Shown piece after piece: positions 1,167-22,204 of a stretch of 64,000 nucleotides of DNA. This stretch comes from an uncultured bacterium. Lineage in GTDB: Bacteria; Patescibacteriota; Patescibacteriia; Patescibacteriales; UBA12465. The DNA lies in the NCBI GenBank assembly GCA_938003925.1, contig CALKWQ010000022.1:90278-154277 (forward strand), given 5' to 3'. The position numbers and the translations under genes were made by a program. Under the pieces are notes generated by a model, which saw nothing but the letters and a program-made list of their open reading frames with translations, did not search any database and had not been told where the DNA came from. How positions within the stretch are numbered: position 1 is the stretch's first letter; every line of letters begins with the position of its first letter.

Positions 1167-1304
1167 ATAATTTTAAAATTATCATTATACCTTAAGTTTA
1201 GCTGAAAAATATTAAAAAATGAAGCTGACATGTCCATGGCTATATATTTTTTAGGGAAATTAGCAATTGACGCCATGTTTTCGCTTAAAACATATAATAC
1301 TAAA

Positions 1305-1327
1305 AAACGGGCTTTTGGTGCCCGTTT
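1305..1327 (-). terminator. intrinsic terminator-like hairpin
   Basis: AAACGGGC / GCCCGTTT 8-bp stem with a 7-nt loop. The T-run is on the minus strand only (cccgtttttta). It sits between the TatC remnant and the start of the 1..1166 gene. Confidence 0.4.
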
Positions 1328-1458
1328 CTATGTTTGATTGAATTTGCCAACAAAATATAAGATCCTGTTTATGGAAGGTACCCATTTTCTTAGACACATT
1401 GTCCATGGGTCAATTGATATTGCCGACTGTACATTACAGGCGGCATTTTTAATTTAGT

Positions 1459-1719
1459 ATGTATTCGGGTGTTATCATAGTCTTTCAGATCCCTATCGTC
1501 ATTATTGGAGGAATCTCCCTGGGCATACTAAAAACAAAATTATTAGCCCTTAAACGTAAGTACATTTATGTGGGTTTAATGATTGCGCTGGCCATTATCA
1601 CTCCAACAACTGATTTATTTAGTCTGGCAATATTATTTATTCCCTGTGTTATTATTTTTGAAATCAGCCTCATTGTTGGTAAAGTCGTAGAAAAAATAAA
1701 TAAACAAAAAATTGAATAA
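1459..1719 (+). pseudogene. tatC: TatC C-terminal fragment (last two TM helices only)
   Basis: The 86-aa ORF ...KRKYIYVGLMIALAIITPTTDLFSLAILFIPCVIIFEISLIV resembles the conserved TatC TM5-TM6 region (RkyaivgafvvaaiiTPpDvfSq..lAiPl..LyEisi). There is an in-frame stop at 1450..1452 directly upstream and no ORF for the missing ~170 N-terminal residues. Confidence 0.45.
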
Positions 1720-1762
1720 AAATTTAGATTGCTTTACAACATAAATTTATCTAAAATTAAAA

Positions 1763-1792
1763 CAAAATCAGGCCATAATAGCCTGATTTTGT
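1763..1792. terminator. terminator hairpin after prx (repeat copy A)
   Basis: Perfect 12-bp stem ACAAAATCAGGC / GCCTGATTTTGT with a 7-nt loop and T-rich flanks on both strands. It lies 29 nt past the prx stop. The same stem recurs at 3313..3343. Confidence 0.7.
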
Positions 1793-1821
1793 ATTTTACC
1801 ACTATTAGCAGTGAGAATGAT

Positions 1822-2550
1822 TTAACTCTTAATATTCAACTCTTTTTCAATATCTTCTTTACTAATCTTTTTAGTGCAGAAAAACCAATCATAGCAATGC
1901 ATTTCATCTTTATTTTCCATTCTCTCTTTAGCAACACCACAAGAACCAGCCGTAGGTACAATCACCTCATCGCCCGGACGCCAATCAGCTGGAGTAGCAA
2001 TTGAAAACTTGTCGGCTGCCTGCATAGCAACTAAAGCTCTATATAGCTCATCAAAATTACGGCCTAAACTTAGAGGATAATAAATAATAGCCCTAATTAT
2101 TCCTTTAGGATCAATAAAGAAAACGGCACGTACTGCCTTAGTATTACTTTCTCCTGGCTGAATCATACCGTATTTCTTAGCAACCTCCATAGTAATATCC
2201 TCAATTAGAGGAAATTTAACCTCAATATCTTTTATGCCTTTATATTCAATCTTCTCCTTAATTGTTCTAAGCCAAGCAATATGACTATATAGACCGTCGA
2301 CTGATAAACCGACTAGTTTACAGTTAGCATCATTAAATTTTTGCTCCATGCTCGCAAAAGTCATAAACTCCGAAGTACAAACCGGAGTAAAATCAGCTGG
2401 GTGACTAAACAAAATAACCCAAGAATCTTTATAATCCTCAGGAAAATTAATTTCTCCCTGAGTAGTGACTGCCTTAAAAGTTGGTGCTTTGTCGCCTATT
2501 CTTGGCATCGCCACGATATTTTCTTGATTTGCAATAATTGCTCCATCCAT
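1822..2550 (-). CDS. peroxiredoxin, Prx6/1-Cys (archaeal-type) subfamily
   Basis: Contains WVILFSHPADFTPVCTSEF (peroxidatic Cys motif) and a C-terminal CGVAKERMENKDEMHC cysteine pair. The true start is probably MPRIGDKAPTF at 2508. Confidence 0.9.
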   Translation of the reverse strand: MDGAIIANQENIVAMPRIGDKAPTFKAVTTQGEINFPEDYKDSWVILFSHPADFTPVCTSEFMTFASMEQKFNDANCKLVGLSVDGLYSHIAWLRTIKEKIEYKGIKDIEVKFPLIEDITMEVAKKYGMIQPGESNTKAVRAVFFIDPKGIIRAIIYYPLSLGRNFDELYRALVAMQAADKFSIATPADWRPGDEVIVPTAGSCGVAKERMENKDEMHCYDWFFCTKKISKEDIEKELNIKS

Positions 2551-2572
2551 AAATTTAAAATTAATTATTAAA

Positions 2573-2848
2573 TTATTTCACAATTTTTATAGCTTTACCA
2601 TTTGTAAGAGCGTCAGCTATCTTTTTATAGGCCGAATAAAGGATTCTTTGATAAGTGCTAGGAGAGGTATTCATTGTTTTAGCAGCAGCTTGCTGATCCA
2701 GGTTACTTATATGCCGTAAACGATAAGACTCCATTTCCTCAATAGATAATTCAACGATTTCGAGATTTCTCATAGGCACCCCTTGGGGCTTAAAATAAGT
2801 TACCACCGGATTGAATGCTATTTTTCGACAAAGTCTTGGTCTAGGCAT
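2573..2848 (-). CDS. DUF134 (UPF0251) family DNA-binding protein
   Basis: MPRPRLCRKI...YFKPQGVP...EEMESYRLRHISNLDQQAAAKTMNTSPSTYQRIL matches the DUF134 pattern (MPRP..R.....FKP.G.......dE.EalRL.D...qeeAA..M.vSr.Tf.Ril). Confidence 0.8.
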   Translation of the reverse strand: MPRPRLCRKIAFNPVVTYFKPQGVPMRNLEIVELSIEEMESYRLRHISNLDQQAAAKTMNTSPSTYQRILYSAYKKIADALTNGKAIKIVK

Positions 2849-2943
2849 ATATATTGAAAATTATAGCAAATTTGCTATTATAACTCTATAAGAGAAGGCT
2901 CTCCGGCCCCTTTTTGTTAAGAGGCCGGTTCCCGTGCCTTCTT

Positions 2944-3186
2944 TTATTTTTGGCTTTTTAAAGCCTCTTTTTCTTTCTTAATCACTTCTAAGTCTGATAA
3001 CAGATCCTGTTCTTCTTCGTCTAAAACTTTTAACTGATCCTCTGGAGATAAAGAAGACTTGAGACCGCCCCTTCCCATTGTCCTTCGTCCACACCAAAAC
3101 AATCTCTCTCCGCCAGCACAACGACCCATTCTTCTGCCCGTTTTTGACCCTTGGCCCATTGGACCAGTTCCATCCATTCTTGGCAT
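2944..3186 (-). CDS. DUF5320 family protein
   Basis: MPRMDGTGPMGQGSKTGRRMGRCAG... followed by an acidic coiled-coil tail, typical of DUF5320, which commonly pairs with DUF134. I moved the start from the track position (3291) to the ATG at 3186. Confidence 0.7.
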   Translation of the reverse strand: MPRMDGTGPMGQGSKTGRRMGRCAGGERLFWCGRRTMGRGGLKSSLSPEDQLKVLDEEEQDLLSDLEVIKKEKEALKSQK

Positions 3187-3312
3187 AAATTTATTATTAC
3201 TATTTTTTATAACGACAGATCGACCTTTGCCCCTGCCTGTTATGAGTATATACCCATAACTATATTGAGTCAAACATACAAACCACGGCAATATATTTAA
3301 TCCAATATTAAA

Positions 3313-3343
3313 ACAAAATCAGGCCTTAAAAGCCTGATTTTGT
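3313..3343 (-). repeat. terminator hairpin, repeat copy B
   Basis: Same 12-bp stem as 1763..1792 (ACAAAATCAGGC/GCCTGATTTTGT) with loop cttaaaa. It shares the upstream flank aatattaaaacaaaa with copy C at 6446..6460. Confidence 0.6.
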
Positions 3344-3348
3344 GTTTT

Positions 3349-3385
3349 GCTCGGGGTCGTGGACGAAGTTCGAAATAGCGTGGCT
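3349..3385 (-). pseudogene. degenerate 3' fragment of tRNA-Gln (att-like direct repeat)
   Basis: gctcggggtcgtgga-cgaag-ttcgaa... aligns with the 3' acceptor/T-arm of the intact tRNA-Gln (gctcggggacatggattcgaacc, 6489..6511) in the same orientation, with a short insertion. It lacks the 5' half. Confidence 0.5.
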
Positions 3386-3401
3386 AAGATTAAATAAGAT
3401 T

Positions 3402-3532
3402 TTAACCCTTAATATTCAATTCCTTTTCAATATCTTACTTACTAATCTTTTTAATGCAGAAAAACCAATCATAACAATGCATTTCATTTTTACTCTCCAC
3501 TTTCTCTCTCTAACAAAACTACAAGAACCAGC
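3402..3532 (-). pseudogene. duplicated 3' fragment of the peroxiredoxin gene
   Basis: 3401..3500 matches 1821..1920 at about 90 of 100 bases (aligned by eye). Translation gives AGSCSFVRERKWRVK / EMHCYDWFFCIKKISK*DIEKELNIKG, compared with AGSCGVAKERMENKDEMHCYDWFFCTKKISKEDIEKELNIKS. There is one frameshift and one premature TAA. Confidence 0.8.
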
Positions 3533-3643
3533 TATTAACAAAACTTATATAATTAAAACCAAACTTAATGATAATAAATAATAAAAAGTACCTATTTTCT
3601 TTAATAATCTTCTTTCACTAAATAAGTAAAATTATTAATATAA

Positions 3644-3841
3644 CTACTTTTTCTTCCGCAATCTCATACTAATAATTGCTAAAATTAAAAATATTAAACC
3701 AAACCAAACATGGAGGTGAATAATTAATTCTCTAGAAGGTCCTTGACCTAAAATATAATTAACAAAAAGAGGAATTGATGTTAGTAATAAAATTATAAAA
3801 GTTGTTGTTCGAATTCTGTCAAGAATTTTATTATTAGCCAT
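3644..3841 (-). CDS. small membrane protein (2 predicted TM helices), hypothetical
   Basis: 65 aa with two hydrophobic stretches (TTFIILLLTSIPLFVNYIL and VWFGLIFLILAIISM) and a basic C-terminus. No family recognised. Confidence 0.4.
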   Translation of the reverse strand: MANNKILDRIRTTTFIILLLTSIPLFVNYILGQGPSRELIIHLHVWFGLIFLILAIISMRLRKKK

Positions 3842-3978
3842 AATAATTAATTATTTAAAGATATTTATTTATTAATTATAACATTTATTTTTTTAAAAGT
3901 CATTCTATAATAAAGATATTTGCTATTAACCTAATGATAATATATACTTAGATTATCTAACTATTATTTTAATAATAT

Positions 3979-4410
3979 ATGAAAGATATAGATGAGTTTG
4001 TCGATTTAATATTTGTAATAAACCGACTAACTAAAGAGGGGTTAGAAAATGAAAAAGGTTCGCCATCTTATATTCAGTTACAGACCTTATCATTTATATC
4101 CCGTCAAAAAAAACCAATTATAAAAAGCGTTGCTGAATATCTAAACATTACCGCGCCATCAGCTACTTTTTTGATAAATAATTTGATAAAACTAGAACTA
4201 GTTAATCGCTTACACAATACTCGAGACAAAAGAATGGTGCATTTAGTTATTAGTAAAAAGGGCAAAAAAGAGTTAGCAAAAAGTTTTTTAAGATCAAAAC
4301 AACACTTACATAAAAAATTATCCCTTTTATCAGCTAAAGAACGTCAAAGTTTTATTTTTATTTTGAAAAAAATTTCTTTATTATTAACAACTGATAAAAA
4401 TGAACATTAA
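3979..4410 (+). CDS. MarR family transcriptional regulator
   Basis: Winged-HTH pattern: LQTLSFISRQKKPIIKSVAEYLNITAPSATFLINNLIKLELVNRLHNTRDKRMVHLVISKKGKKEL. It overlaps the downstream permease by 11 nt. Confidence 0.8.
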   Translation: MKDIDEFVDLIFVINRLTKEGLENEKGSPSYIQLQTLSFISRQKKPIIKSVAEYLNITAPSATFLINNLIKLELVNRLHNTRDKRMVHLVISKKGKKELAKSFLRSKQHLHKKLSLLSAKERQSFIFILKKISLLLTTDKNEH

Positions 4411-5611
4411 AGCCGCTTTCTTTTTGGCTTACAAAACAATTGTTAGGGGCAGTAAAGGGACATTAATAATGACTATATTAATAATGACCCTAGCCTACGT
4501 AAATCTAATATTTATATCATCTATTTTTGGTGGTATTGTTGAGGCTATTAATGAACAATATATAGATAATTTATATGGCAATATAGTTATCACCCCAGCA
4601 AGTGATAAAATTTATATAGAAAATAAACAAACAAGCTCTATAAATCATATACCCGGCATAGTAGCTATTTCAGCTCACTATATAAATGATGCTTTAATTT
4701 CTTATGATGAGTATAAAGATGGTAATAACATACAACAAGGAAAATGGAAAATAAAATCTGTTAACGTTGAAGATGAAAAAAGAGTGACTGCAATTAGCGA
4801 TTCTATCATATCGGGCGAATATCTAGACGACAAAGATAGAGATAAAATAGTCATCGGAAAAGAAATAGCAGGTGGCCAGGGCGGGGATTTAGATTATCTT
4901 AGTTTAGGAGGTGTTCTTGTTGGCGATACAATAGATGTGAAATTTAGCAATAATATAAAAAGAACTTACACAATAAAGGGTATTTTTTCCACAAAAAATA
5001 ATCAAGCTGATCAAATGGCTTTTATTACCAGAAAAGAAATGGAATCAATCCTTGGAGTACATAATTTATCTTCAGAAATAATTATAAAAACAATTGAAAA
5101 AGGCCAGGAAGAACAATACATAGAGTCAATAAGACAATCTGGTTTTTACGATGAAGAGATAAGAACATGGGAACAATTAACCGGCTTTACTTCTAGTGCT
5201 AGTAAAAGTTTTATGATGATCAGTATTATTCTTGGTGCGATTGGAACGATAGTGGCGGGAATTACAATATTTATTATCATTTTTGTTAGTATCGTAAATA
5301 AAAGAAGACAAATTGGCATACTAAAAGCTATCGGCATGGAAGAAAGTACAATAATTTTATCATTTATTATGCAGGCTGTATTCTATGCTATCATTGGAAT
5401 CCTTTTGGGTATTAGTATAATTTTATTTGTCATCAGGCCATTTTTCGTAGACAATCCCTTAGACTTTCCGGTTGGATGGGTATCGTTAAAAATAACTTTT
5501 GACATAATTAAGATAAGTAATATTAGTCTTATGATAGCTGCTTTAATTGGTGGTTTTATTCCTGCTTTTAGAGGCACTAGAGAAAGTATTCTAGATGCGA
5601 TTTGGGGTTAA
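4400..5611 (+). CDS. ABC transporter permease, FtsX/MacB-like
   Basis: N-terminal TM helix, a large extracytoplasmic domain and a C-terminal FtsX-type 3-TM bundle (RRQIGILKAIGMEESTIILSFIMQAV...). Confidence 0.85.
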   Translation: MNIKAAFFLAYKTIVRGSKGTLIMTILIMTLAYVNLIFISSIFGGIVEAINEQYIDNLYGNIVITPASDKIYIENKQTSSINHIPGIVAISAHYINDALISYDEYKDGNNIQQGKWKIKSVNVEDEKRVTAISDSIISGEYLDDKDRDKIVIGKEIAGGQGGDLDYLSLGGVLVGDTIDVKFSNNIKRTYTIKGIFSTKNNQADQMAFITRKEMESILGVHNLSSEIIIKTIEKGQEEQYIESIRQSGFYDEEIRTWEQLTGFTSSASKSFMMISIILGAIGTIVAGITIFIIIFVSIVNKRRQIGILKAIGMEESTIILSFIMQAVFYAIIGILLGISIILFVIRPFFVDNPLDFPVGWVSLKITFDIIKISNISLMIAALIGGFIPAFRGTRESILDAIWG

Positions 5612-5628
5612 TTTTTAAAATAAAAAAA

Positions 5629-6303
5629 ATGATTATTGAAGTAAAAAAATTAAAAAAAACCTATGGCGGAAAAATTCCAACCCATGTTCTCAAGGGAGTT
5701 AGTTTCGAGGTTGAGAAGGGGGAATTTATTGCCTTGATGGGGCGTAGCGGCTCAGGCAAGTCCACCCTTCTGCATCAACTAGGCCTGCTTGATTCTCCGA
5801 GTTCGGGAGATATTATTATAGATGGAATAAGCACAATAAATTTTACACAAAAACAAAAAAATGAATTTCGTTTAAAAAAATTAGGGTATGTTTTTCAAGC
5901 TTATGCCCTATTACCAGAATTAACAGCTCTAGAATCAATCTATTTACCGCTAATGCTGTCTGGTGTGCCAAAATCTCAATATATTAAGAAGGCTTTAGAA
6001 ATGTTAGAAAAAGTTGGTCTCAGTGAACGAAGAAACCATTTACCAAAAGAAATGTCCGGTGGCGAACAGCAGCGAGTGGCTATTGCTAGAGCACTAATAA
6101 ATGAACCGGCTATTTTATTTGCAGATGAGCCAACGGCCAATCTAGATAGCGAATCATCGGAAACGGTTTTGAAATTATTTAAAAAATTAAATAAAGAAAT
6201 TGGACAAACTATTATTATGGTTACTCATGAGCCAGATGACAAGAAATATGTTGATAGGGTTATTTGGCTTAAAGATGGAACAATAACATCAGAAGGGATT
6301 TAA
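5629..6303 (+). CDS. ABC transporter ATP-binding protein (MacB/LolD-like)
   Basis: Walker A GRSGSGKST, signature LSGGEQQRVAIARAL, Walker B ILFADEPT. The track start at 5602 is TTG; I prefer the ATG at 5629 (MIIEVKKLKKTYG). Confidence 0.9.
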   Translation: MIIEVKKLKKTYGGKIPTHVLKGVSFEVEKGEFIALMGRSGSGKSTLLHQLGLLDSPSSGDIIIDGISTINFTQKQKNEFRLKKLGYVFQAYALLPELTALESIYLPLMLSGVPKSQYIKKALEMLEKVGLSERRNHLPKEMSGGEQQRVAIARALINEPAILFADEPTANLDSESSETVLKLFKKLNKEIGQTIIMVTHEPDDKKYVDRVIWLKDGTITSEGI

Positions 6304-6479: not shown

Positions 6480-6489
6480 CGTGCTTTAG

Positions 6490-6560
6490 CTCGGGGACAT
6501 GGATTCGAACCATGATTGATGGCTTCAAAGGCCACTGTCCTACCATTAGACGATCCCCGA
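6490..6560 (-). tRNA. tRNA-Gln (anticodon UUG)
   Basis: Folded manually: acceptor TCGGGGA/TCCCCGA (the U1-A72 pair typical of bacterial tRNA-Gln), D stem GTCT/GGAC, anticodon stem GTGGC/GCCAT with loop CTTTGAA, T arm CATGG-TTCGAAT-CCATG, discriminator G. 71 nt, no encoded CCA. Confidence 0.9.
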
Positions 6561-10050: not shown

Positions 10051-10087
10051 TAAATAAAGCCGGCCACAGTGCCGGCTTGTTTATTTT
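10051..10087. terminator. bidirectional intrinsic terminator
   Basis: AAGCCGGC / GCCGGCTT 8-bp GC-rich stem with a 6-nt loop, flanked by aataaataa and gtttatttt. It lies between the convergent tRNA pair (+) and the FtsB-like gene (-). Confidence 0.75.
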
Positions 10088-10114: not shown

Positions 10115-10537
10115 TCAATTGGCAAAATATTGCCACCATTTACGCCAATTAGCCACTGAGACTTTAGGTTCTGCCACTGGTTGAACTGACCCGAAAGCTT
10201 CACCTTGGATAACGGCAACGGTTTCTCCTGGACGCTTTAAGCCCATATTTAAACGGGCCTGCTCTTCTAAGGATTGGTCTGATTGTAAATAGTCAATCAT
10301 CTCCTTCAAATCTTGATTCTTGGCCTCAAACTCACTAATCTCCTGTTGAATATCAGCAATTTCTCGCTCAATAATACGCTTACGACTATAATTCTTGGCT
10401 AATGGCACCAAAATGAGCAATAAAAAAAGTAAAGCAATAATTGCAAGTATTCGCGGATTAGCTAACCAACGACTAAAAAAATCTGATTTAACTCGTTGTT
10501 GCTGTTTAAAATTAGAGACCGGTTTTGCTTTTGCCAT
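10115..10537 (-). CDS. septum formation initiator (FtsB/DivIC family)
   Basis: Single TM helix (ILAIIALLFLLLILVPL) followed by a coiled coil and ...SLEEQARLNMGLKRPGETVAVI, the DivIC/FtsB family signature. Confidence 0.7.
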   Translation of the reverse strand: MAKAKPVSNFKQQQRVKSDFFSRWLANPRILAIIALLFLLLILVPLAKNYSRKRIIEREIADIQQEISEFEAKNQDLKEMIDYLQSDQSLEEQARLNMGLKRPGETVAVIQGEAFGSVQPVAEPKVSVANWRKWWQYFAN

Positions 10538-12196: not shown

Positions 12197-12772
12197 TTAA
12201 ATATTAAAACCGCGACGGCGGATTTCAAAAAAACAACGAGCGCAAGCCAGCACATCCACCATCGCGTTATGAGCTTCGGCAAAGTCGCGATTAAACAAAT
12301 AGCGGTGGAGCTCGGCTAAATTTGGCCACTTATAACCGCCCCGCCCATTACTGATACGACAAATATCAGCACCAGCCTTCATGGTGCATATTTTTTTAGA
12401 TGAAGCTAAATCATTAGCAATCAGAAATCTATAAAACTCACAGCCGATAATTTTATCATCAAAATCAATATTGTGGCCGACTAAAGCCTCTGCACGAGAG
12501 ATGTGACGGGCAAACTCGGTTAGCACCGTTAAAGCGTCTTTACCTTCAGCTACAGCCTGTTCGTGGCTAATGCGATGGATACGGGTTGCCTCTTCCGGAA
12601 CTACAAAGCCATCAGGCTTAATAATATAATCGTAACGATCCCAGGCTTTACCATCTTTATCAAACCAAGCCCAAGACAACTGGACTAGACGAGGCCAATT
12701 CTCTGTATCGGTAATCGGCGCCTTATAACTCTTAGGCAAGCCAGTGGTTTCCGTATCAAAAACTAAATACAT
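12197..12772 (-). CDS. DnaQ-like 3'-5' exonuclease (DEDDh)
   Basis: Exo I LVFDTETTG, Exo II VGHNIDFDDKII, Exo III HNAMVDVLA. Confidence 0.85.
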   Translation of the reverse strand: MYLVFDTETTGLPKSYKAPITDTENWPRLVQLSWAWFDKDGKAWDRYDYIIKPDGFVVPEEATRIHRISHEQAVAEGKDALTVLTEFARHISRAEALVGHNIDFDDKIIGCEFYRFLIANDLASSKKICTMKAGADICRISNGRGGYKWPNLAELHRYLFNRDFAEAHNAMVDVLACARCFFEIRRRGFNI

Positions 12773-12778
12773 AAAAAA

Positions 12779-14752
12779 TTATTCAGGGCGACGAGAAAAA
12801 TCAATGACTTCGTCGGCCATAATATCCAGCCCCTCTTCGCCATCCATCTCTGATTCATTCAGAACTACTTTAGGTGCCACCGTCTTCTCTGGTCTACCTT
12901 TAAAGTCAACCGGCCGAGCTTGATGCAAAGATGACAAAGACAAAGCAGGGGTAGAGCTGGCTAAATTTTCCAATTCCTCACTCTTGGCCTGCTTACGCGT
13001 ATCTAATTCGGCCTTCTTTTCCTGTCGTTTTAGACTAAGGCAATCTTTACAAAAAACTGGCCGCACACCATCTGGCACAAATACAGTGGTAGTATCAACA
13101 CCACAACGGGCGCAGACAGCGGAATAAGATGGCTTGGCAGCAGCTGACTTAACTGGAGCAGGTGTTGCATTACGTGGCGCTGTAGTGGCGGTAGGGCGCC
13201 TTAACTGATCATTGCTTGATGCTGGGGCAGTACTGCGCGGCATTGCTGCTGCCTGGTTACTATTAGCCTTAACCACTAGTGGAGTTGAAAGAGTTGGAGT
13301 AGAACCTACCGAAATTTTATTAACTACCGAAGTAACGGTCGACCTAGGCGTGAGGGTGGGGGCTGATTGGCTAATGTTAGTAGCGACCTGACTTGTACTA
13401 ACGGCGCTCACAGGAGTGCTGGGCGCTATACGGGGAGCGCTAACATTAGAGTTAACAGCAACTGGAGCATCATCTGCTGCTTCATGCCAACGTAAAATCT
13501 TCTCCTCTACTTCAGCCCGACTACTAGCATATTTCTCGCGTGAATACGCAATAACCTTCTCTACGTTATTGGTTTTTTCCTCCTCTGTCAAAGGAGGCAA
13601 GCCTTTAGCAGAAAAAGGAGAGGAAGCAATACCATCGATCATTAATTTAAGATACATCTCGTATTTAGGTAGGTTGACCAAATCTTCTTCAGTAAAAACC
13701 GGGGCAAACTCTTTTGCCAACTCTTCAGCGTCAGTAGCGCCAACCCTGAACGAAACCATAGTGCCGACGTTACCAAATACTGCCGGTTTCACCTTTTCAC
13801 TTAACTGTTCAATATATTGGTGAGCCAAAATTAAATTCAAATGGTACTTTCTTGCTTCTGATAAAATATTTGCAAAACTGTCGGTGGAGAAATTTTGAAA
13901 TTCATCAATATATAAATAAAAATCTTTACGTTCTTTTTCCGGCATGTCCACACGACTCATCGCAGCCAATTGAATCTTAGTAATCATCATTGCCCCCAAT
14001 AAAGCCGAATTGTCCTCGCCAATACGCCCTTTACTCAGATTCATAATCAAAATCTTGCCCTCATCCATGATGTTACGAATATCGATAGATGATTTAACTT
14101 GACCAATTATATTACGCATTAAAGAGCTAGAAAGAAATTGACCAACCTTATTTTGAATAGGAGATACCGCCTCGGAAGCAAATTTATCCGCGTAAGACGC
14201 AAATTCTTTTTCCCAAAAAGCTTTAACAACAGGATCTTTAATATTAGCAACCACTCTTTTACGGTATGATTTATCCGATAACATCCGCACCACACCTAAA
14301 AGCGTAGAGCCAGGAAAATCCAGAATAGCTAAAATAGCATTACGCAAAATATACTCTAGGCGAGGCCCCCAAGAGTCTGCCCATAGTTTTTGGAAAACTC
14401 CCAGCAAACCAGAGGCGACTAAATGGCGTAAATGCGGCTCAACCTGTTCCAAAACATTAAAAGCAATCGGATAATCCATGTCCGATGGGTTAAAATATAC
14501 TACATCTTGAATACGGTTAGCTGGCACATACTCAATAATTTTTTCGGCTAAATCACCGTGAGGATCAACCACCGCCAATCCGTAACCGGCACGAATATCG
14601 CCCACAATCATATTCTCCTGAATGGTGGACTTACCCATACCTGTTTTCCCAATCAAATACATGTGCCGGCGACGATCGTCGGTTTTGATACCAAATTTTT
14701 TAAATTGATTGCGGAAAGTCGTTTGCGCGAACACCGCTATCTCTTCACTCAT
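12779..14752 (-). CDS. soluble VirD4/TraD-like (FtsK/HerA superfamily) P-loop ATPase with C-terminal zinc ribbon
   Basis: Walker A GKTGMGKS, Walker B FYLYIDEFQNF, and ARKYHLNLILAHQY. There is no N-terminal TM helix. The ~170-aa S/T/P/A-rich tail carries CARCGVDTTTVFVPDGVRPVFCKDC (CxxC-x17-CxxC). Confidence 0.7.
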   Translation of the reverse strand: MSEEIAVFAQTTFRNQFKKFGIKTDDRRRHMYLIGKTGMGKSTIQENMIVGDIRAGYGLAVVDPHGDLAEKIIEYVPANRIQDVVYFNPSDMDYPIAFNVLEQVEPHLRHLVASGLLGVFQKLWADSWGPRLEYILRNAILAILDFPGSTLLGVVRMLSDKSYRKRVVANIKDPVVKAFWEKEFASYADKFASEAVSPIQNKVGQFLSSSLMRNIIGQVKSSIDIRNIMDEGKILIMNLSKGRIGEDNSALLGAMMITKIQLAAMSRVDMPEKERKDFYLYIDEFQNFSTDSFANILSEARKYHLNLILAHQYIEQLSEKVKPAVFGNVGTMVSFRVGATDAEELAKEFAPVFTEEDLVNLPKYEMYLKLMIDGIASSPFSAKGLPPLTEEEKTNNVEKVIAYSREKYASSRAEVEEKILRWHEAADDAPVAVNSNVSAPRIAPSTPVSAVSTSQVATNISQSAPTLTPRSTVTSVVNKISVGSTPTLSTPLVVKANSNQAAAMPRSTAPASSNDQLRRPTATTAPRNATPAPVKSAAAKPSYSAVCARCGVDTTTVFVPDGVRPVFCKDCLSLKRQEKKAELDTRKQAKSEELENLASSTPALSLSSLHQARPVDFKGRPEKTVAPKVVLNESEMDGEEGLDIMADEVIDFSRRPE

Positions 14753-14774
14753 AAATTAAATAATAAAGCGCTGT

Positions 14775-15062
14775 TTACAAAGCTAAACCGCTACCTAAAG
14801 TCTGCAATAGCTGCTGATAATAATCACGGATTAAAGGCGGCAAGTAAATTACACCGATAATTAAGGGTATAATAATTAATATGAGTTTTATCCAGCCGAA
14901 CAAACGCTGCCAAGCTACGTAGGTATTGATATGTTTAACCATGGCCTGAATTTCTTTAGTCATGGCTAAATTAGCCCGTAATAAAGCAGCCAGATCTTCC
15001 TTGTTTTCAGCCTGAATATCATCAACTTCTACAGAAGTCTGCAAAGGGGTCTGATTATCCAT
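14775..15062 (-). CDS. hypothetical C-terminally membrane-anchored protein
   Basis: 95 aa from the ATG at 15062 (4 nt after the nrdG stop). It has an acidic/coiled N-terminus and one TM helix (WIKLILIIIPLIIGVIYL). Confidence 0.5.
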   Translation of the reverse strand: MDNQTPLQTSVEVDDIQAENKEDLAALLRANLAMTKEIQAMVKHINTYVAWQRLFGWIKLILIIIPLIIGVIYLPPLIRDYYQQLLQTLGSGLAL

Positions 15063-15066
15063 ATAA

Positions 15067-15801
15067 TTAAATGCGGGCGCGACACTCTTGCACAAACTGC
15101 GCGCCTATTAAAGCAAAATTTTCTAAATCTTTATCCAAAAAAGTACTCTTATTCTCAAAAGAGTCATTTACCAATGTAGTATCTGCCTTAAATTTTTGCA
15201 AATACCAACGCTGAGCCCCCTGAATCATGGACCCCATCAGAGCAATATCCGACTCTTCGTGTAAACTGGGCACTAAAGTGGTCCTAAACTCGTAGGGCAA
15301 ACCGCTAGCCATTATTATTTTAACACTTTTTTGCAAATTCTCTAAATTTACCCCCACCCCCACCACTGCTTCATATTTAGACCAAGGAGCTTTAATGTCC
15401 ATGGCAATATAGTCAATTAGCCGGTCTTTAATTAATCGATCTAACATCTCCGGATTAGTCCCATTACTATCAAGCTTAACTAAGTAGCCTAAATCTTTGA
15501 TTTTCTTAATAAATTCTGGTAAATCATGATGCAGAGTGGGCTCGCCACCACTTATGACTATTCCATCTAACTTACCCCGCCTTTCTGCTAAAAAAAGAAA
15601 AAGGTCGTCCTCCTTAATCAGGGGATAACCTTTATCTTTATGTTTAGTATCTAGCTCCAACTCGTCAGTACGGCGGGGCCAGACAAGCATAGGGTTGTAG
15701 CAAAAATGGCAACGAAAATTACAAGATTGAGTAAAAACAATGGCTGCCAATTTATCAGGATAATCTAACAGGGTTAATTTTTCTAAACCGCCAATAATCA
15801 T
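15067..15801 (-). CDS. nrdG: anaerobic ribonucleoside-triphosphate reductase activating protein (radical SAM)
   Basis: CNFRCHFCYNP (CxxxCxxC cluster) and GIVISGGEPTL. GGAGG lies 9 nt upstream of the ATG. Confidence 0.9.
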   Translation of the reverse strand: MIIGGLEKLTLLDYPDKLAAIVFTQSCNFRCHFCYNPMLVWPRRTDELELDTKHKDKGYPLIKEDDLFLFLAERRGKLDGIVISGGEPTLHHDLPEFIKKIKDLGYLVKLDSNGTNPEMLDRLIKDRLIDYIAMDIKAPWSKYEAVVGVGVNLENLQKSVKIIMASGLPYEFRTTLVPSLHEESDIALMGSMIQGAQRWYLQKFKADTTLVNDSFENKSTFLDKDLENFALIGAQFVQECRARI

Positions 15802-15870: not shown

Positions 15871-16014
15871 TTACTCAGAACAAGCAACCTTGAAAGTCTT
15901 ACGATCTTTATACTCAGAAGCCTTGCCCGGATTAAAGCTTTTAACTGGAGTTAACCAACCGACGACGCGGCTGTAAACAATGCATTCCTGACGTTGAGTA
16001 GTAATGGGGCTCAT
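15871..16014 (-). CDS. stand-alone glycyl-radical segment of class III RNR (47 aa)
   Basis: Below the track size cut-off. My translation is MSPITTQRQECIVYSRVVGWLTPVKSFNPGKASEYKDRKTFKVACSE. VYSRVVGW...FNPGK matches the NrdD C-terminal glycyl-radical motif (E. coli RRVCGYLG..FNAGK). An in-frame stop lies at 16044..16042 upstream. Confidence 0.65.
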   Translation of the reverse strand: MSPITTQRQECIVYSRVVGWLTPVKSFNPGKASEYKDRKTFKVACSE

Positions 16015-16117: not shown

Positions 16118-18178
16118 CTAACAGGTAGAACAGCGCTCTGCTTGCATATCAGCACTAGTAAACCCCATCTCTTCGTCACATTTAGGGCAATATTTGTGCT
16201 CACCCGCCAGATAACCATGCTTGGGACAAATGGAAAAGGTCGGAGTAATCGTGAAATAGGGTAACCTATAGTTGTTAATAATCCTCTGGGCTAATTTCTT
16301 AGCAGCTTCACCATCTGGCAAACGCTCTCCCAAATATCCATGTAAAACTGTGCCACCAGTATATTTTATCTGTAAATCATCTTGTAAGTCTAAGGCGGTA
16401 AAAATATCATCAGAAAAACCAACTGGCAAATGAGTAGAATTGGTATAATAAGGAGCAGCTCCAGCTTTAACCGCCTCAGTATTAGCAAAAATCATATCTG
16501 GATAAAGCTCTAAATCTTTTTTAGCAAAACGATAAGTAGCTCCTTCACCGGGGGTAGCTTCTAAGTTGTAAAGGTTATTAGTCTCGTTCTGGTAATCCAT
16601 CAAACGCTCACGCATGGCGTTCATTACTTCAATTGCAAAAGCATGTCCTTCGGGAGTAGAAATATCTTTGCCCAACAAATTCAGTAAAGCCTCGTTCATA
16701 CCATTAATACCAATAGTATTAAAATGGTTCTGCCAGTAAGTGCCAAAACGTGCTTTAATATCAGACAAATAATGACAAGAATAGGGGTACAAACCATCTT
16801 CCGAAAATTTCTCAATAATCTTACGCTTAATCTCTAAGCTATCCTTGGCAACAGCCATTAACCTATACACCTGCTCAATAAACTCTTCTTTGGTTTTAGT
16901 ATTGTGACCAATACGAGCTAGATTTAAAGTAACCACACCCAAGCTGCCAGTTAAGGGATTAGCGCCAAAGAGACCGCCACCACGTTTTCTTAATTCACGA
17001 TTATCCAATCTTAAGCGACAACACATTGAACGAGCATCATCGCGATCCATGTCGGAATTTACAAAATTGGAGAAATAAGGAATGCCATATTTAGCCGTCA
17101 TCGCCCAAACTGGCTCCAAACATTCACGATCCCAATCAAAGGACTTATCAATCATATACGTAGGAATCGGAAAGCCGAAAACGCGGCCAGTGGAGTCACC
17201 TTCTAACATTACTTCCGCAAAAGCCTTATTGAACATATCCATTTCGGCCTGGAAATCTTTATACTTCTCGGGCATCAGCTGACCACCAATTACAACATTT
17301 TCCTCGCCTACCAGCTTAGAAGGAGTAACATCCATCGTAACATTAGTAAATGGCGTTTGAAAGCCAACACGAGTAGGCACATTGATATTAAACATGAACT
17401 CTTGTAAACCCTGTTTTACTTCTTTATAACTTAAATTATCATAACGGATAAAAGGGGCGAGGTAGGTATCGAAATTAGCGAAAGCCTGGGCGCCAGCCGC
17501 TTCTCCTTGCATAGTGTAAAAGAAATTAACAATCTGGCCCAAAGCGCTGCGAAAATGTTTAGGTGGTTTACTCTGCACTTTTTCCGGTACACCGCCGAAG
17601 CCTCTAATCAATAAATCTTTTAAATCCCATCCGCAACAATAGGGGGCTAATAAACCTAAATCATGAATATGTAAATCTCCATTCACATGAGCGTCGCGTA
17701 TAGCCTGGGGATAAAGCTTGTTCAACCAATAGCGAGCAGAAATCGCAGAAGCAATATAATTATTTAAACCTTGTACCGAAAAGCTCATGTTGCTATTCTC
17801 TTTCAAGCGCCAATCAGCTCTGCCTAAATAATCTTCCATTAACTTTTCGTCAGAAGTTGCTTTATTCAACTCGCGTAATTGACGATGCTGATCGCGATAC
17901 AAGATATAAGCTTTAGCGGTTTTAATTTGTTTATGTTCAATTAAGACTTCTTCCACTAAATCCTGAATTTCCTCAACTGCCGGGATGCTATTCTTATGAA
18001 ATTTCTTAGCAATTTTAGCTACCACTTCATCACTCAGTTGCTGAGCTAACGTCTCATCGTCAATTTCTACTGACAGAGCCGCTTTATAAATTGCCTGGGT
18101 AATTTTTGACTGGCTGAAGTCAACGATGTCGCCGGAGCGTTTCCGGAGTTGGGTAATGATTTCGAGCATGGGTTTCAA
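16118..18178 (-). CDS. nrdD: anaerobic ribonucleoside-triphosphate reductase (class III), lacking its glycyl-radical C-terminus
   Basis: N-terminal ATP-cone (RKRSGDIVDFSQSKITQAIYKA), a core conserved throughout, and the Zn site ICPKHGYLAGEHKYCPKC. It ends ...DEEMGFTSADMQAERCSTC* without an RxxGY motif. The track start at 18178 is TTG; an ATG lies at 18169. Confidence 0.9.
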   Translation of the reverse strand: MKPMLEIITQLRKRSGDIVDFSQSKITQAIYKAALSVEIDDETLAQQLSDEVVAKIAKKFHKNSIPAVEEIQDLVEEVLIEHKQIKTAKAYILYRDQHRQLRELNKATSDEKLMEDYLGRADWRLKENSNMSFSVQGLNNYIASAISARYWLNKLYPQAIRDAHVNGDLHIHDLGLLAPYCCGWDLKDLLIRGFGGVPEKVQSKPPKHFRSALGQIVNFFYTMQGEAAGAQAFANFDTYLAPFIRYDNLSYKEVKQGLQEFMFNINVPTRVGFQTPFTNVTMDVTPSKLVGEENVVIGGQLMPEKYKDFQAEMDMFNKAFAEVMLEGDSTGRVFGFPIPTYMIDKSFDWDRECLEPVWAMTAKYGIPYFSNFVNSDMDRDDARSMCCRLRLDNRELRKRGGGLFGANPLTGSLGVVTLNLARIGHNTKTKEEFIEQVYRLMAVAKDSLEIKRKIIEKFSEDGLYPYSCHYLSDIKARFGTYWQNHFNTIGINGMNEALLNLLGKDISTPEGHAFAIEVMNAMRERLMDYQNETNNLYNLEATPGEGATYRFAKKDLELYPDMIFANTEAVKAGAAPYYTNSTHLPVGFSDDIFTALDLQDDLQIKYTGGTVLHGYLGERLPDGEAAKKLAQRIINNYRLPYFTITPTFSICPKHGYLAGEHKYCPKCDEEMGFTSADMQAERCSTC

Positions 18179-18258: not shown

Positions 18259-18717
18259 TTATTTTTTGTCCTTAATTAACTTATTCAACTCACGCCTGAA
18301 CTCATTTGCGTCTTTGAAAGATTCATAAACGGAAGCATAACGGATATAAGCAACGGGGTCGGTTTTCTTCAAATGTTTCATCACCATTTGACCTACTTGA
18401 AGAGAAGTAATCTCATTCTGCCTTAATTTCTGCAAGTCCCTCTCAATACCGTGAACAATTTGCTTAAATTTATCCTCTGTAATGGGCCTCTTTTCCAAAG
18501 ACTTACGCAAACCGCTAACTAATTTCTCCCGACTATAGGATTCGCGTCGACCGTCACGCTTTACAATCATTAAGTCTAAAATTTCTATTTCTTCATAGGT
18601 GGAAAAACGAAAATTACACTTTAAGCATTCACGGCGGCGGCGGATAGAAAGGCCATCGGGAGCCACTCGAGAATCTACTACTTTAGTATCATTATAATAA
18701 CAGACCGGACATTTCAT
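18259..18717 (-). CDS. nrdR: transcriptional repressor NrdR
   Basis: MKCPVCYYNDTKVVDSR...CLKC zinc ribbon plus an ATP-cone. 152 aa. Confidence 0.95.
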   Translation of the reverse strand: MKCPVCYYNDTKVVDSRVAPDGLSIRRRRECLKCNFRFSTYEEIEILDLMIVKRDGRRESYSREKLVSGLRKSLEKRPITEDKFKQIVHGIERDLQKLRQNEITSLQVGQMVMKHLKKTDPVAYIRYASVYESFKDANEFRRELNKLIKDKK

Positions 18718-18787: not shown

Positions 18788-18816
18788 ATTATAGCAGAAT
18801 ACCAAACCATGGTCAA
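18788..18816 (-). promoter_or_regulatory. sigma-70-type promoter of the nrdR-nrdD-nrdG operon
   Basis: Minus strand TTGACC (18816..18811), a 17-nt spacer, then TATAAT (18793..18788). Confidence 0.6.
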
Positions 18817-19689: not shown

Positions 19690-20889
19690 TTAATTACCCA
19701 TTTTTTTCCGAATAAACGCAGGAACGCTTAAATCATCCTCTTCTTCCAACTCCAATTCTGGCGCTTTTTCAACGCGCTTCTCTACTAAGGGTTTAAGAGG
19801 AATATTCTTGATAGTCTGAACTTTAGCTTTTTTGTCTCCCCATAAAGCAGAAGCAGGGCCACTATCCTTCTCATTTTCGCTCTCAATAAAAGGATTTGGA
19901 GTATAGCTCTTTAGTTCAGTTTTAACACCTTTACTCTTGCCATCAAATCCAGTAGCAACTACGGTGATTTTAATCTGGTCTTTCATCTTCTCATCAATCA
20001 CGGCACCAAAAATAATCTTGGCATCTTCATCAGCTGCGGAGGTAATTACTTTAGCTGCGTCACTGACCTCATTCATACTTAAATCCGGTCCACCAGTAAT
20101 GGTAAAGACGATGCCACGAGCACCATCGATAGACATATCTAATAAATTAGAGTTGATAGCAGCTTTAGCCGCCTCAATCGCCTTATTCTCGCCACTAGCC
20201 TGACCAATACCCATTAAAGCGGAACCGGCGTTAGCCATAACTGCCTTCACGTCGGCAAAGTCAGCATTAATAACACCAGGCACCGTGATAATCTCAGCAA
20301 TACCTTGGACACCTTGACGCAGAACGTCATCAGCGATGGCAAAAGCCTCTAACAAAGAAGTGCGTTTATCGATAACTTGTAATAACTTATCATTGGAAAT
20401 GGTAATAATTGTGTCCACCTTATCGGCTAAATCAGCGAAGGCTCTGTCGGCAATATTCTTACGCTGTCCGCCCTCAAAAATAAAAGGTTTAGTCACAACA
20501 GCTACGGTTAATGCTCCTAAATCGCGCGCCACTTGAGCTACGATTGGAGAGGCTCCGGAACCAGTGCCGCCACCCAAGCCGCAAGTGACAAATACCATGT
20601 CGCACCCCTTTAAAGCTTCTCTAATTTCATTCTGAGACTCCTCGGCTGCACCTTTGCCTAAGTCTGGGTTCATGCCCGCGCCTAAGCCACGGGTGACTGT
20701 TTTGCCGATATGAATCTTCTCGCCCGCTTTATTGTAATGCAAAGCTTGAATATCAGTATTGATGGCCACGAACTCTACGCCTTTAATGCCGTTTTCAATC
20801 ATACGGTTAATAGCGCTACCGCCGCCGCCGCCAACACCGACGACTTTTATCTTCGCAAAAGTTTCAATTTCTGGTTTTACTTCCGCCAT
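19690..20889 (-). CDS. ftsZ: cell division GTPase FtsZ
   Basis: GVGGGGGSAINRM and the GGGTGSGASP tubulin signature, plus the C-terminal DDLSVPAFIRKK peptide. Confidence 0.97.
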   Translation of the reverse strand: MAEVKPEIETFAKIKVVGVGGGGGSAINRMIENGIKGVEFVAINTDIQALHYNKAGEKIHIGKTVTRGLGAGMNPDLGKGAAEESQNEIREALKGCDMVFVTCGLGGGTGSGASPIVAQVARDLGALTVAVVTKPFIFEGGQRKNIADRAFADLADKVDTIITISNDKLLQVIDKRTSLLEAFAIADDVLRQGVQGIAEIITVPGVINADFADVKAVMANAGSALMGIGQASGENKAIEAAKAAINSNLLDMSIDGARGIVFTITGGPDLSMNEVSDAAKVITSAADEDAKIIFGAVIDEKMKDQIKITVVATGFDGKSKGVKTELKSYTPNPFIESENEKDSGPASALWGDKKAKVQTIKNIPLKPLVEKRVEKAPELELEEEDDLSVPAFIRKKMGN

Positions 20890-20947
20890 AGGTCTGGCTG
20901 AATTGCCGTTTACTAATTCCCTAGAAAACGACTACTCTACATTTAAT

Positions 20948-22204
20948 TTATCTTGGAATAATTTTTTGAAAAATATTCTTGGCCTTACCAAAAATATTAC
21001 CGATATTCTTCTGAAAATTACCGGCGCTTTGACTGGGATAAGCATTAGCGCCCCAAATAACCAAGCCTAGTGCTGGTAAAAATTCTGGGGTGCGAACCTT
21101 ATCAATAACCACGCTGATATTTTTAGATTGACCGAGAGCCGCTGGCAGACGCAACTTGCGTTTAGCCGCTTCAATCATGCCATCCAATTGGGAGCCGGCA
21201 CCGGTAAAAACTATACCGGCCGGCAACATGCCAGAGCGATCAATCTTCTTTAACTCCTTATCTACCTTATCAAATATTTCTTCCACCCGAGCTTCAATGA
21301 TTTCCGCAATATATTTTCTGGAAACTAAGCTAATGTCATCATTAACATCTTCTTCTTTAACTAAACGAGTTACATCAACCTCATCGCCCTCAGTAAAAGC
21401 ATCTGGATTAGCGCTGCCAAATTCCAACTTAATCCTTTCCGCTAAATTAATAGGACAACGCAAACCTAAAGCAATATCATTAGTAATATACTCTGAACCA
21501 ACTGGCAAAACAGCCGCGTGTAGAAGATTGCGCTCCTCATAAACAGCCAAAGAAGTAGTTGAGGAACCGATATTAACTAGAGCCACGCCTAACTCTTTCT
21601 GCTTTGGGGTTAACACCGCCTCCGCTGCAGCCAAAGGAGAAATTACTAAGTCTTCAATTTCTAAACCAGTGCGAAAAATTGCTTTGGTCAGATTTTTTGT
21701 CTGCGTGCTTAAACCTTGAATAATTAAAGCTTCCACTTCCAAACGAATACCACTCATACCGATAGGATCTTTGATGTCGGTTTGATTATCTACACTGAAC
21801 TTAATCGGCATGACGTGTAAAATCTCGTAATTTACCGGCACCGCCAAAGCGCGCGCGGCTTCAATAGCCCGATTAACATCGGCTTCGCTGATTTCACCAT
21901 CACTTTTACTGACAGCTACTACGCCTTTGCTACGTTCACATTTAACATTAGGATCATTAATGCCGACCCAAACACTAGAGATTGGCACTCCCACAATTCT
22001 TTCAGCTTTTTCGAGACACGCTGAAATTGAGGAAGTTGTTTCCTCAATACTGTTTACCACCCCCTTGCTCACACCTGCAGTAGGCGAAGAGACGGCGCCA
22101 ATAATTTGAATTTCCTCCCCAGTCGGGCCAGAAATTTTCTGTCCGATTACTAAACGGACAGCCGTGGAACCAATGTCTAAACCAGCGATAATGTCATCTT
22201 TCAT
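20948..22204 (-). CDS. ftsA: cell division protein FtsA
   Basis: Actin-fold motifs GLDIGSTAVRLVIG, VNIGSSTTSLAVY and GIVFTGAGSQLDG. It lies upstream of ftsZ. Confidence 0.93.
   Translation of the reverse strand: MKDDIIAGLDIGSTAVRLVIGQKISGPTGEEIQIIGAVSSPTAGVSKGVVNSIEETTSSISACLEKAERIVGVPISSVWVGINDPNVKCERSKGVVAVSKSDGEISEADVNRAIEAARALAVPVNYEILHVMPIKFSVDNQTDIKDPIGMSGIRLEVEALIIQGLSTQTKNLTKAIFRTGLEIEDLVISPLAAAEAVLTPKQKELGVALVNIGSSTTSLAVYEERNLLHAAVLPVGSEYITNDIALGLRCPINLAERIKLEFGSANPDAFTEGDEVDVTRLVKEEDVNDDISLVSRKYIAEIIEARVEEIFDKVDKELKKIDRSGMLPAGIVFTGAGSQLDGMIEAAKRKLRLPAALGQSKNISVVIDKVRTPEFLPALGLVIWGANAYPSQSAGNFQKNIGNIFGKAKNIFQKIIPR

Follow-up and report, generated by a model that had tools for sequence, protein, structure and literature searches.

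The 64,000-nt stretch of DNA from an uncultured member of the Patescibacteria analyzed here (contig CALKWQ010000022.1 of assembly GCA_938003925.1, positions 90,278 to 154,277; hereafter the window, with coordinates counted from its first letter) encodes a soluble 657-aa ATPase at 12779–14752 on the minus strand. We tentatively propose that this gene is the motor half of a split, chromosomal, and near-universal translocase of the type IV coupling protein (T4CP) lineage, which would work as a ring on the membrane and for which a type IV secretion system (T4SS) would be the most probable client. By sequence and predicted fold, the ATPase is a TrwB-type P-loop domain of the T4CP lineage. Across its family, the conserved partner is a membrane protein, DUF8128, encoded either upstream of the ATPase or fused to it. 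The gene family is already on record; the architecture worked out here varies the coupling-protein theme.

A coupling-protein-type ATPase core

The ATPase core (aa 1–425; 13478–14752, minus strand, as for all genes and domains of this locus) was delimited from an alignment of 38 homologs and from the secondary structure of an AlphaFold2 (AF2) model. Most of its columns are invariant in this alignment. Identity to the counterparts at 80 species-level related loci is 56–97%, and the core retains 56–88% identity between classes of the candidate phyla radiation (CPR). An original prediction, made from the letters of the window alone, had named a Walker A motif GKTGMGKS and a Walker B motif YLYIDEFQNF; these are located at aa 35–42 (14627–14650) and aa 279–288, the latter within the stretch FYLYIDEFQNF (aa 278–288; 13889–13921), and both regions are invariant in the alignment.

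T4CPs (TrwB of R388, VirD4, TraD, TraG, DotL, and Cag-beta) provided the best Pfam, PDB-sequence, and fold matches. The Pfam model TrwB_AAD_bind (PF10412) scored 39.7 bits over aa 22–357 (E = 3.6e-10, cutoff 20.5 bits), ahead of DUF87 (7.6e-6, 26.6 bits), TraG-D_C (1.9e-5), and T4SS-DNA_transf (1.7e-4), and the ATPase had no Pfam match to FtsK_SpoIIIE, PF03135 (the CagE_TrbE_VirB N-domain), or AAA_10. With phmmer, TrwB was the sole significant match among PDB sequences (6e-5). The initial description of a TraD/VirD4-type, coupling-protein-like ATPase is therefore borne out by both sequence and predicted fold. HerA and FtsK/SpoIIIE motors fit less well: HerA matches among PDB sequences and in PADLOC were weaker or partial, and there is no room for the N-terminal barrel of HerA because the Walker A motif already lies at aa 35. 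The PADLOC matches themselves (mad8, 1.2e-12; HerA, 1.6e-7) are generic P-loop matches, and no defense context surrounds the gene.

Unlike T4CPs, however, the ATPase lacks an N-terminal transmembrane (TM) domain, has neither a T4SS nor a relaxase encoded alongside it, and scores far below curated NCBIfam cutoffs (SXT_TraD, 42.4 vs. 366 bits; conju_CD1115, 37.3 vs. 250; CedD, 26.9 vs. 600). No hydrophobic stretch passed the threshold for a TM segment, in agreement with the missing anchor reported from the first reading. The core is also far more conserved than that of typical T4CPs, and the protein has a zinc-ribbon tail. We call the protein T4CP-like and place it in a distinct clade, one that departs from defining T4CP features in its absent anchor, its absent T4SS or relaxase context, and its sub-threshold curated scores.

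The same assignment emerged when a broader hidden Markov model (HMM) of the CPR core was scored against 11 reference proteins. Phage G gp156 (215 bits) and a 913-aa Bacillus subtilis plasmid protein (187 bits) scored high, TrwB reached 41 bits, and pSK41 TrsK (VirD4) reached 24.7 bits in a match colinear over positions 19–351, with the FtsK-like TcpA at 10.8 bits. Unlike VirB4, the motor scores as VirD4-type, TrwK and TcpF reaching only 0.7 and −0.6 bits, respectively. When the ATPase profile was aligned with hhalign to single VirD4 and VirB4 sequences, probabilities were 20% and 76%, over partial regions only.

The AF2 model of the ATPase, built from a shallow, 70%-identical alignment, is poor (mean predicted local distance difference test score, pLDDT, of 60). 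It places an all-helical insertion in the P-loop domain (aa ~100–231, between strands 84–87 and 234–238; pLDDT 60–85). VirB4 has a comparable helical bundle, so this insertion may not discriminate between the two families. The TM-score of this low-pLDDT model to TrwB is 0.36–0.43. Foldseek ranked TrwB, DotL, and Cag-beta first, followed by HerA; 37 of the 38 matches at E ≤ 1e-3 are to these T4CPs or HerA, and VirB4 is absent from the top 50 fold matches.

A membrane partner encoded upstream or fused

Neighboring genes were counted in the best 80 of at least 587 related loci, a sample biased to close relatives, so that the counts given below for the exonuclease and nrd genes of the window are upper bounds. 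In 36 of these loci, the more distant ones, a DUF8128 gene lies directly upstream of the ATPase on the same strand, 2–76 nt away. Its 415–570-aa product, named PF26449 by precomputed annotation, begins with a TM hairpin (two TM helices) and had no match in our local copy of Pfam, in NCBIfam, or among PDB sequences; likewise, a literature search found no papers mentioning PF26449 or DUF8128. Full-length DUF8128 is also found N-terminal to the ATPase as a single polypeptide in 70 of the 150 best cluster representatives (E down to 1e-107), and split and fused forms share an invariant N-terminal ATPase segment, FAxTxFRNxxKxFGIxxDDRRRH. That the two are fused in some genomes and separate in others, a “Rosetta stone” link, strongly supports joint action of DUF8128 and the ATPase.

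DUF8128 is not found in canonical T4CPs, and its predicted structure points instead to VirB4. The AF2 model (pLDDT 87, predicted TM-score 0.81) shows two TM helices followed by an alpha/beta domain, without a conserved P-loop, and the only significant solved structures in a fold search, the top 14 PDB chains, were all TrwK/VirB4 (E = 9e-5 to 1.3e-3, probability ≥ 0.98). The DUF8128-ATPase module thus has the layout of VirB3-VirB4, with a TM hairpin, an N-domain of ~350 aa, and an ATPase, but its motor is VirD4-type. Among viral models, the best match was phage G gp156 (E = 3.9e-15), then phage JL, phage Slash, and phage G gp155. An identity of DUF8128 with TrsD or the VirB4 N-domain at the sequence level was considered and rejected, as neither hhalign nor hmmsearch gave any signal against pSK41 TrsD and TrsE, R388 TrwK, or pCW3 TcpF.

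The wider neighborhood of the module was surveyed across 138 neighbor genes of the 36 partner-type loci (L026–L078), for which 25 of the 75 families found were listed. In these distant Patescibacteria, the order SecF, Sigma70_r4/HARE-HTH protein, DUF8128, ATPase recurs in 29–33 of the 36 loci, with L087:6511–11537, from a closer relative of the window, grouped with them. The module may thus include the HARE-HTH protein as a third component; no HARE-HTH gene is present in the 64-kb window. Downstream, pgk and then, two genes from the ATPase, a DHH/DHHA1 phosphoesterase are found in 11–13 of the 36 loci, and the neighbors in Paceibacteria-type loci are pgk and efp.

A conserved zinc-ribbon tail

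The core is followed by an apparently disordered linker (aa 426–538; 13139–13477), recognized from a pLDDT below 50, its composition (A 18%, S 16%, T 13%, P 12%, V 12%), and gapped alignment columns. Its length and sequence differ among the 38 aligned homologs and its columns are unconserved. The S/T/P/A-rich composition given in the original prediction stands; the length of ~170 aa does not, as the low-complexity segment measures ~113–120 aa (aa 426–538/546).

Next comes a predicted CxxC-x17-CxxC zinc ribbon with a long basic helix at aa 569–600 (12953–13129 for both). The motif CARCGVDTTTVFVPDGVRPVFCKDC occupies aa 547–571 (13040–13114), where it had been placed initially, and its four cysteines (547, 550, 568, and 571) are invariant. 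Both PF23477 zf_Tbcl_2 (8e-10, 38.7 bits vs. a cutoff of 27) and TIGR04272 (40.1 vs. 36 bits) match this region, the latter being the named TIGRFAMs-type domain to which the first reading had pointed. AF2 predicts two hairpins plus the helix with a pLDDT of ~90. The same domain makes up small TIGR04272/PF23477 proteins of Methanosarcina, two of which were shown to bind zinc (PMC12704099); unlike in these small proteins, the ribbon of the ATPase is a C-terminal module of a large protein and is followed by the basic helix and further motifs.

Conservation extends beyond the ribbon to elements absent from the original prediction, namely the basic helix and the motif ALSLSSLHQARPVDFKGRP (aa 603–621; 12890–12946). 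This motif follows the pattern LSLxxLxxAxPVDF(K/R)GRP, with S605, L609, P614, D616, F617, and G619 invariant across the 38 homologs, and occurs once in the window. The protein then ends, as described earlier, in an acidic segment, SEMDGEEGLDIMADEVIDFSRRPE (12782–12853), which bears a semi-conserved E.E.IDFS motif. A search of PDB sequences with the C-terminal tail gave only a weak LIM-domain match (E = 0.78). Family-wide, the zinc ribbon is carried by 11 of the 150 best representatives and by none of the 70 DUF8128 fusions; it therefore cannot be central to the core function of the family.

Relatives on plasmids and phages

Using tblastn, the core was detected in 42 phage records, including Bacillus phages G, CP-51, JL, Shanette, and the SPO1 group (24–30% identity), and in 384 plasmid records from Streptomyces, Bacillus, Staphylococcus, haloarchaea, and Sulfolobus. 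The 913-aa protein mentioned above is encoded on a 65-kb B. subtilis plasmid (NZ_OX419568). Its N-terminus resembles DUF8128 (hhalign probability 96.5%, E = 9.4e-10), and its ATPase shares 28% identity with that of the window. Directly downstream of its gene are a replication-relaxation (relaxase) gene, a conjugal-transfer gene, TcpE, and an “ATP-binding protein”, a bare annotation that is also borne by the pCW3 VirB4 homolog TcpF. A coupling protein would be expected in this position, which links the CPR family to the conjugation systems of monoderms and agrees with the MPF-FATA (mating-pair formation, FATA class) ancestry proposed for the CPR T4SS in a 2025 survey (PMC12102498).

More generally, each half of the fused Firmicute proteins (the 913-aa protein, phage G gp156, the proteins of phages JL, CP-51, and Shanette, and SPO1 gp27.4) has its homolog in the CPR pair, scoring 187–215 bits for the ATPase (24–30% identity) and 48–61 bits for the N-domain against the CPR HMMs. 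They differ from the ATPase of the window in being fused, in lacking the zinc-ribbon tail, in residing on mobile elements, and in being much less conserved. In phage G, the products of two adjacent genes, gp155 and gp156 (L084:2220–6362), resemble the DUF8128 model in fold: gp155 carries a VirB-like annotation and has a weak P-loop match, and gp156 is a fusion of DUF8128 with a T4CP-like ATPase. The SPO1-group phages carry the ATPase as well (gp27.4). A tail-less, 395-aa copy sits between transposases on plasmid NZ_CP081110 of Sulfitobacter mediterraneus (L082:6986–8173); at 42% identity to the window ATPase and 433 bits to the CPR core HMM, it looks like a horizontal transfer out of the CPR-type family.

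Prevalence and earlier reports of the family

The ATPase family occurs in at least 587 species-representative genomes. A word-indexed search retrieved at least 8000 homologous clusters, all named ones being Patescibacteria metagenome-assembled genomes, and an exhaustive search of 50%-identity representatives returned 23,868 matches at E ≤ 1e-3 and 7,098 at E ≤ 1e-30. Homologs are labeled either [quoted passage not shown] or “CxxC-x17-CxxC domain-containing protein”.

By its PGAP name and Pfam profile, the window gene belongs to the patescibacterial VirD4-type homologs covered by the 2025 survey (Quinonero-Coronel et al. 2025, PMC12102498). The survey counted 5,713 such homologs in 2,918 of 3,035 Patescibacteria genomes (96%), of which only 148 were near virB4; like the window gene, they are widespread and far from virB4. 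Exaptation of these homologs, in the survey's words, “cannot be ruled out”. In the passages searched, the survey makes no mention of a soluble architecture, a tail with a zinc ribbon, DUF8128 as partner or in fusions, or synteny with SecF and HARE-HTH.

On average, a genome carries about two members of the family. At four loci, a tandem paralog of ~495 aa adjoins the ATPase (L041:7809–9302, L042:8118–9608, L059:8253–9671, and L075:7604–9088); the second paralog at L041 shares 47% identity with the window core and lacks the zinc ribbon. Such a tandem paralog may provide redundancy or form a hetero-oligomer.

Patescibacteria represent a large share of bacterial diversity and rely on hosts to provide nucleotides and other building blocks; no T4SS but theirs has been reported to be essential for growth of its own bearer. 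The role of the ubiquitous “orphan” VirD4-type ATPase, which the survey left open, now gains several handles: the ATPase and the VirB4-like DUF8128 make up one module, in split or fused form, its neighborhood of SecF and HARE-HTH genes is a housekeeping one, and it has relaxase-linked plasmid relatives as well as phage relatives. They suggest a partner for co-purification, a bait in the form of the tail, and paralogs for joint deletion. An architecture that stands between VirB4 and VirD4 also bears on the diversification of T4SS ATPases. The copy in the window is itself a fairly ordinary member of the family, rearranged and partner-less; it is the family that matters for Patescibacteria biology.

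Gene order around the ATPase

In the window, the ATPase is embedded in a run of minus-strand genes. Upstream lie nrdR (18259–18717), nrdD (a 686-aa open reading frame, ORF; 16118–18178), nrdG (15067–15801, with a Radical_SAM match), and a 95-aa single-pass membrane protein (14775–15062, ATG start, MDNQ...). Downstream are a 191-aa stand-alone DEDDh 3'-5' exonuclease (12197–12772), a multi-TM family 2 glycosyltransferase (GT2; Glyco_trans_2_3, PF13632; 10615–12195, with its ATG at 12195), and a DivIC/FtsB-like division protein (PF04977, 4e-14; 10115–10537), the last gene of the predicted unit. Reading the junctions between nrdG, the 95-aa gene, the ATPase, the exonuclease, and the GT2 gave intergenic gaps of 4, 22, 6, and 1 nt, exactly as first noted. 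The best sigma-70-like promoter match (11/12 positions plus an extended −10 TG; 18788–18816, minus strand) lies 5' of nrdR and a bidirectional terminator-like hairpin (10057–10078) directly 3' of DivIC, both recognized by consensus matching only. By the same consensus matching, no strong promoter or terminator lies between nrdR and DivIC, and these genes probably share one transcript here.

From this packing, the original prediction had drawn a genetic coupling of the ATPase to a proofreading-type exonuclease and to deoxynucleotide (dNTP) supply, a view that comparison with other CPR genomes does not uphold. The exonuclease is the next gene after the ATPase in 19 of the 80 loci and nrdG precedes the ATPase in 27, with nrdR, nrdD, and nrdG syntenic in 26–27, in each case within the nearest clade only. 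Even there these neighbors are dispensable: at seven loci of this clade (L010, L011, L022–L025, and L043) the ATPase is followed straight by the GT2 without an exonuclease, and two others (L020 and L021) lack nrdD and nrdG. Being clade-restricted and dispensable, the exonuclease and nrd links do not constitute a conserved functional module, and the adjacency of the ATPase to the DEDDh exonuclease and nrdRDG is, as judged from gene order, a lineage-specific rearrangement. The nuclease is a DEDDh enzyme by its motifs, by RNase_T (PF00929, 3.8e-12, 47.5 bits vs. a cutoff of 24), and by PADLOC (DEDDh, 4e-27), but all DnaQ equivalogs remain far below cutoff (PRK06310, 40.9 vs. 236 bits; TIGR00573, 29.5 vs. 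71.5 bits), so that a role as the replicative proofreader is not demonstrated for it.

The GT2, already recognized as a membrane GT2 in the initial reading, and DivIC form a more widely conserved ATPase neighborhood than the exonuclease. A GT2 is found within 3 kb downstream of the ATPase in 35 of the 80 loci, including distant ones, and is still 44–45% identical in the Paceibacteria-type loci L047 and L050; DivIC is syntenic downstream in 26 of the 80. Both are also present in a closer relative, L087, on a 638-kb contig where MurB, HARE-HTH, DUF8128, ATPase with zf_Tbcl_2, DUF1361, GT2, DivIC, and finally a PBP5/DPBB protein follow one another. Because this order matches the downstream part of the window, nrdRDG and the 95-aa gene have taken the place of HARE-HTH and DUF8128 in the clade of the window, and the exonuclease that of DUF1361.

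The 95-aa protein, with a conserved amphipathic helix, a YLPP motif, and a single hydrophobic TM helix (LFGWIKLILIIIPLIIGVIYLPPLI) that agrees with its earlier description as an anchored protein, had no match in Pfam or NCBIfam. Its family lies upstream of the ATPase at 22 related loci, all of the same clade, and is missing from L003 and L007. As L020 and L021 are among these 22 although nrdD and nrdG are missing there, the family travels with the ATPase and not with nrdG. The gene occupies the slot of the DUF8128 partner gene of relatives; the possibility that its product is a DUF8128 remnant was dismissed at an hhalign probability of 0.3%.

Possible function of the ATPase

In the mechanism that we tentatively favor, the ATPase would assemble as a ring at the membrane, docking on DUF8128 (encoded elsewhere in the genome, if retained) and/or on the 95-aa membrane protein, either of which would supply the membrane anchor in trans. 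ATP would be used to recruit and feed a macromolecular substrate, and the most probable client would be the non-conjugative, chromosomal T4SS of Patescibacteria. The C-terminal extension of the ATPase looks like a T4CP receptor arm, and by analogy the linker, zinc ribbon, basic helix, PVDF(K/R)GRP motif, and acidic end could form a receptor/adaptor arm. C-terminal tails act as such arms in TraD and DotL.

Several observations weigh against this proposal. The fold ranking of the ATPase is soft because its AF2 model is poor, and pSK41 TrsE (VirB4) scored 28.7 bits against the CPR core HMM, slightly over TrsK, although in two short pieces. The likeness of DUF8128 to VirB4 comes from the fold search alone, at a TM-score of ~0.33 and with no aligned VirB4 part given by the tool, and DUF8128 has no sequence signal to VirB4 or TrsD. 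DUF8128 itself was absent from all six frames of the 64-kb window (tblastn and hmmsearch, E ≤ 10), so the partner may have been lost in this lineage. The gene is almost never located near T4SS genes, and no T4SS family was among the 25 families listed of the 75 found in the 36-locus census. In the survey, VirB4 was present in 2,417 of 3,035 genomes (80%) vs. 96% for VirD4-type homologs, and the t4cp homolog of strain ML1 (Ca. Southlakia epibionticum) was reported as not essential for epibiotic growth, whereas other T4SS genes were (PMC12102498, citing transposon sequencing of ML1). For this last statement we rely on the survey's citation, since the main text of the ML1 paper (Wang et al. 2023) makes no mention of VirD4, T4CP, or VirB4. 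Non-essentiality in ML1 could be explained if paralogs were redundant, given about two copies per genome.

Four other functions were weighed, here in decreasing order of weight. The idea of the original prediction, a nucleic-acid translocase that serves uptake, salvage, or processing without the T4SS, is unlikely but the strongest of these rivals. In it, the ring ATPase would pull in or handle DNA or RNA at the membrane, the ribbon and helix would bind nucleic acid, the exonuclease would degrade the polymer to nucleotides, and the class III ribonucleotide reductase (RNR) would supply dNTPs from the same transcript. Tight packing of the genes in one predicted unit from nrdR to DivIC speaks for it, as do the exonuclease adjoining the ATPase at 19 loci, the DHH/DHHA1 phosphoesterase two genes downstream at 11–13 loci of another lineage, the wider distribution of the ATPase family than of VirB4, the lack of nucleotide synthesis in Patescibacteria, and the reported non-essentiality in ML1 of both t4cp and comEC. 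Yet the exonuclease and nrd neighbors are limited to one clade and can be missing even there, the ribbon is not central to the family, and no comEC lies nearby. We consider it less likely still that the VirB4-like DUF8128 and the VirD4-like motor form a phylum-wide, T4SS-independent housekeeping membrane translocase, equipped in some lineages with a zinc-ribbon receptor tail, that imports or processes nucleic acids of the host or environment for nucleotide salvage, here rewired into an operon with the DEDDh exonuclease and anaerobic RNR. An involvement in protein export or surface-structure assembly alongside Sec, for instance of the giant pilin-domain proteins described below, would accord with the SecF, HARE-HTH, DUF8128, ATPase order of distant loci and with the presence in the window of SecDF, encoded on the ATPase strand 11 kb upstream, and T4CPs of effector-translocating systems do recruit proteins by their C-terminal tails; since such housekeeping synteny may be mere inherited gene order, and no secretion chaperone or substrate gene is linked, we regard this as improbable.

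The location of the ATPase, between FtsA/FtsZ (19690–22204) and DivIC, a PBP5/RlpA-like protein, and FtsE/FtsX, raises the idea of an FtsK-like translocase for chromosome segregation or division; DivIC is syntenic in 26 of the 80 loci, and the core is as conserved as a housekeeping motor. The missing FtsK_SpoIIIE match, the low TcpA score, and the absence of any division context in Paceibacteria-type loci nevertheless make this role quite improbable, and the idea of an FtsK replacement is further weakened because TM7x, also a Patescibacterium, has its own ftsK. The least probable of the readings considered is a HerA-like motor acting with a nuclease in DNA end processing or defense, as in HerA-NurA or HerA-Sir2. 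Here the DUF87 score, the HerA fold matches, the PADLOC matches to mad8 and HerA, and a nuclease gene 6 nt downstream are countered by better scores of T4CP models, by the lack of an N-terminal HAS-barrel region, and by the absence of the exonuclease pairing in 61 of the 80 loci. A near-universal gene in single or double copy, of 60–85% identity and with otherwise housekeeping neighbors, is also unlike defense genes.

Other features of the window

The window is otherwise an ordinary Patescibacteria chromosome, encoding FtsZ/FtsA, SecDF, ClpP, RelA/SpoT, HisRS, RuvB, GyrA, FtsEX, and an AddA-like helicase-nuclease. It contains no VirB4, VirB6, or relaxase, consistent with the earlier view that the ATPase lies outside any visible conjugation locus. 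The sole T4SS-related signatures in the window, 20–28 kb from the ATPase, belong to two giant predicted surface proteins of 1952 and 891 aa (34505–40363 and 40479–43154, both minus strand), in which an N-terminal T4SS_pilin domain (PF18895) is followed by TIG, Big_5, or fn3 repeats.

The class III RNR of the unit is split. The nrdD ORF ends just past its C-terminal zinc site (CPKC...CSTC), and the glycyl-radical motif (YSRVVGWLTPV..NPGK..EY.DR) is carried by a separate 47-aa ORF (15871–16014, minus strand), 103 nt 3' of nrdD and before nrdG. Each of the 26 related loci having nrdD likewise has this separate ORF, whose product always starts with MSP or MAP; the spacer had no match to an Rfam family.

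Finally, positions 1–6000, adjoining tRNA-Gln (6489–6560), have a low GC content (0.31–0.34 vs. ~0.42 elsewhere) and encode a peroxiredoxin, DUF5320, a MarR regulator, and a MacB-like ABC pair on the opposite strand; this block may be an acquired island.

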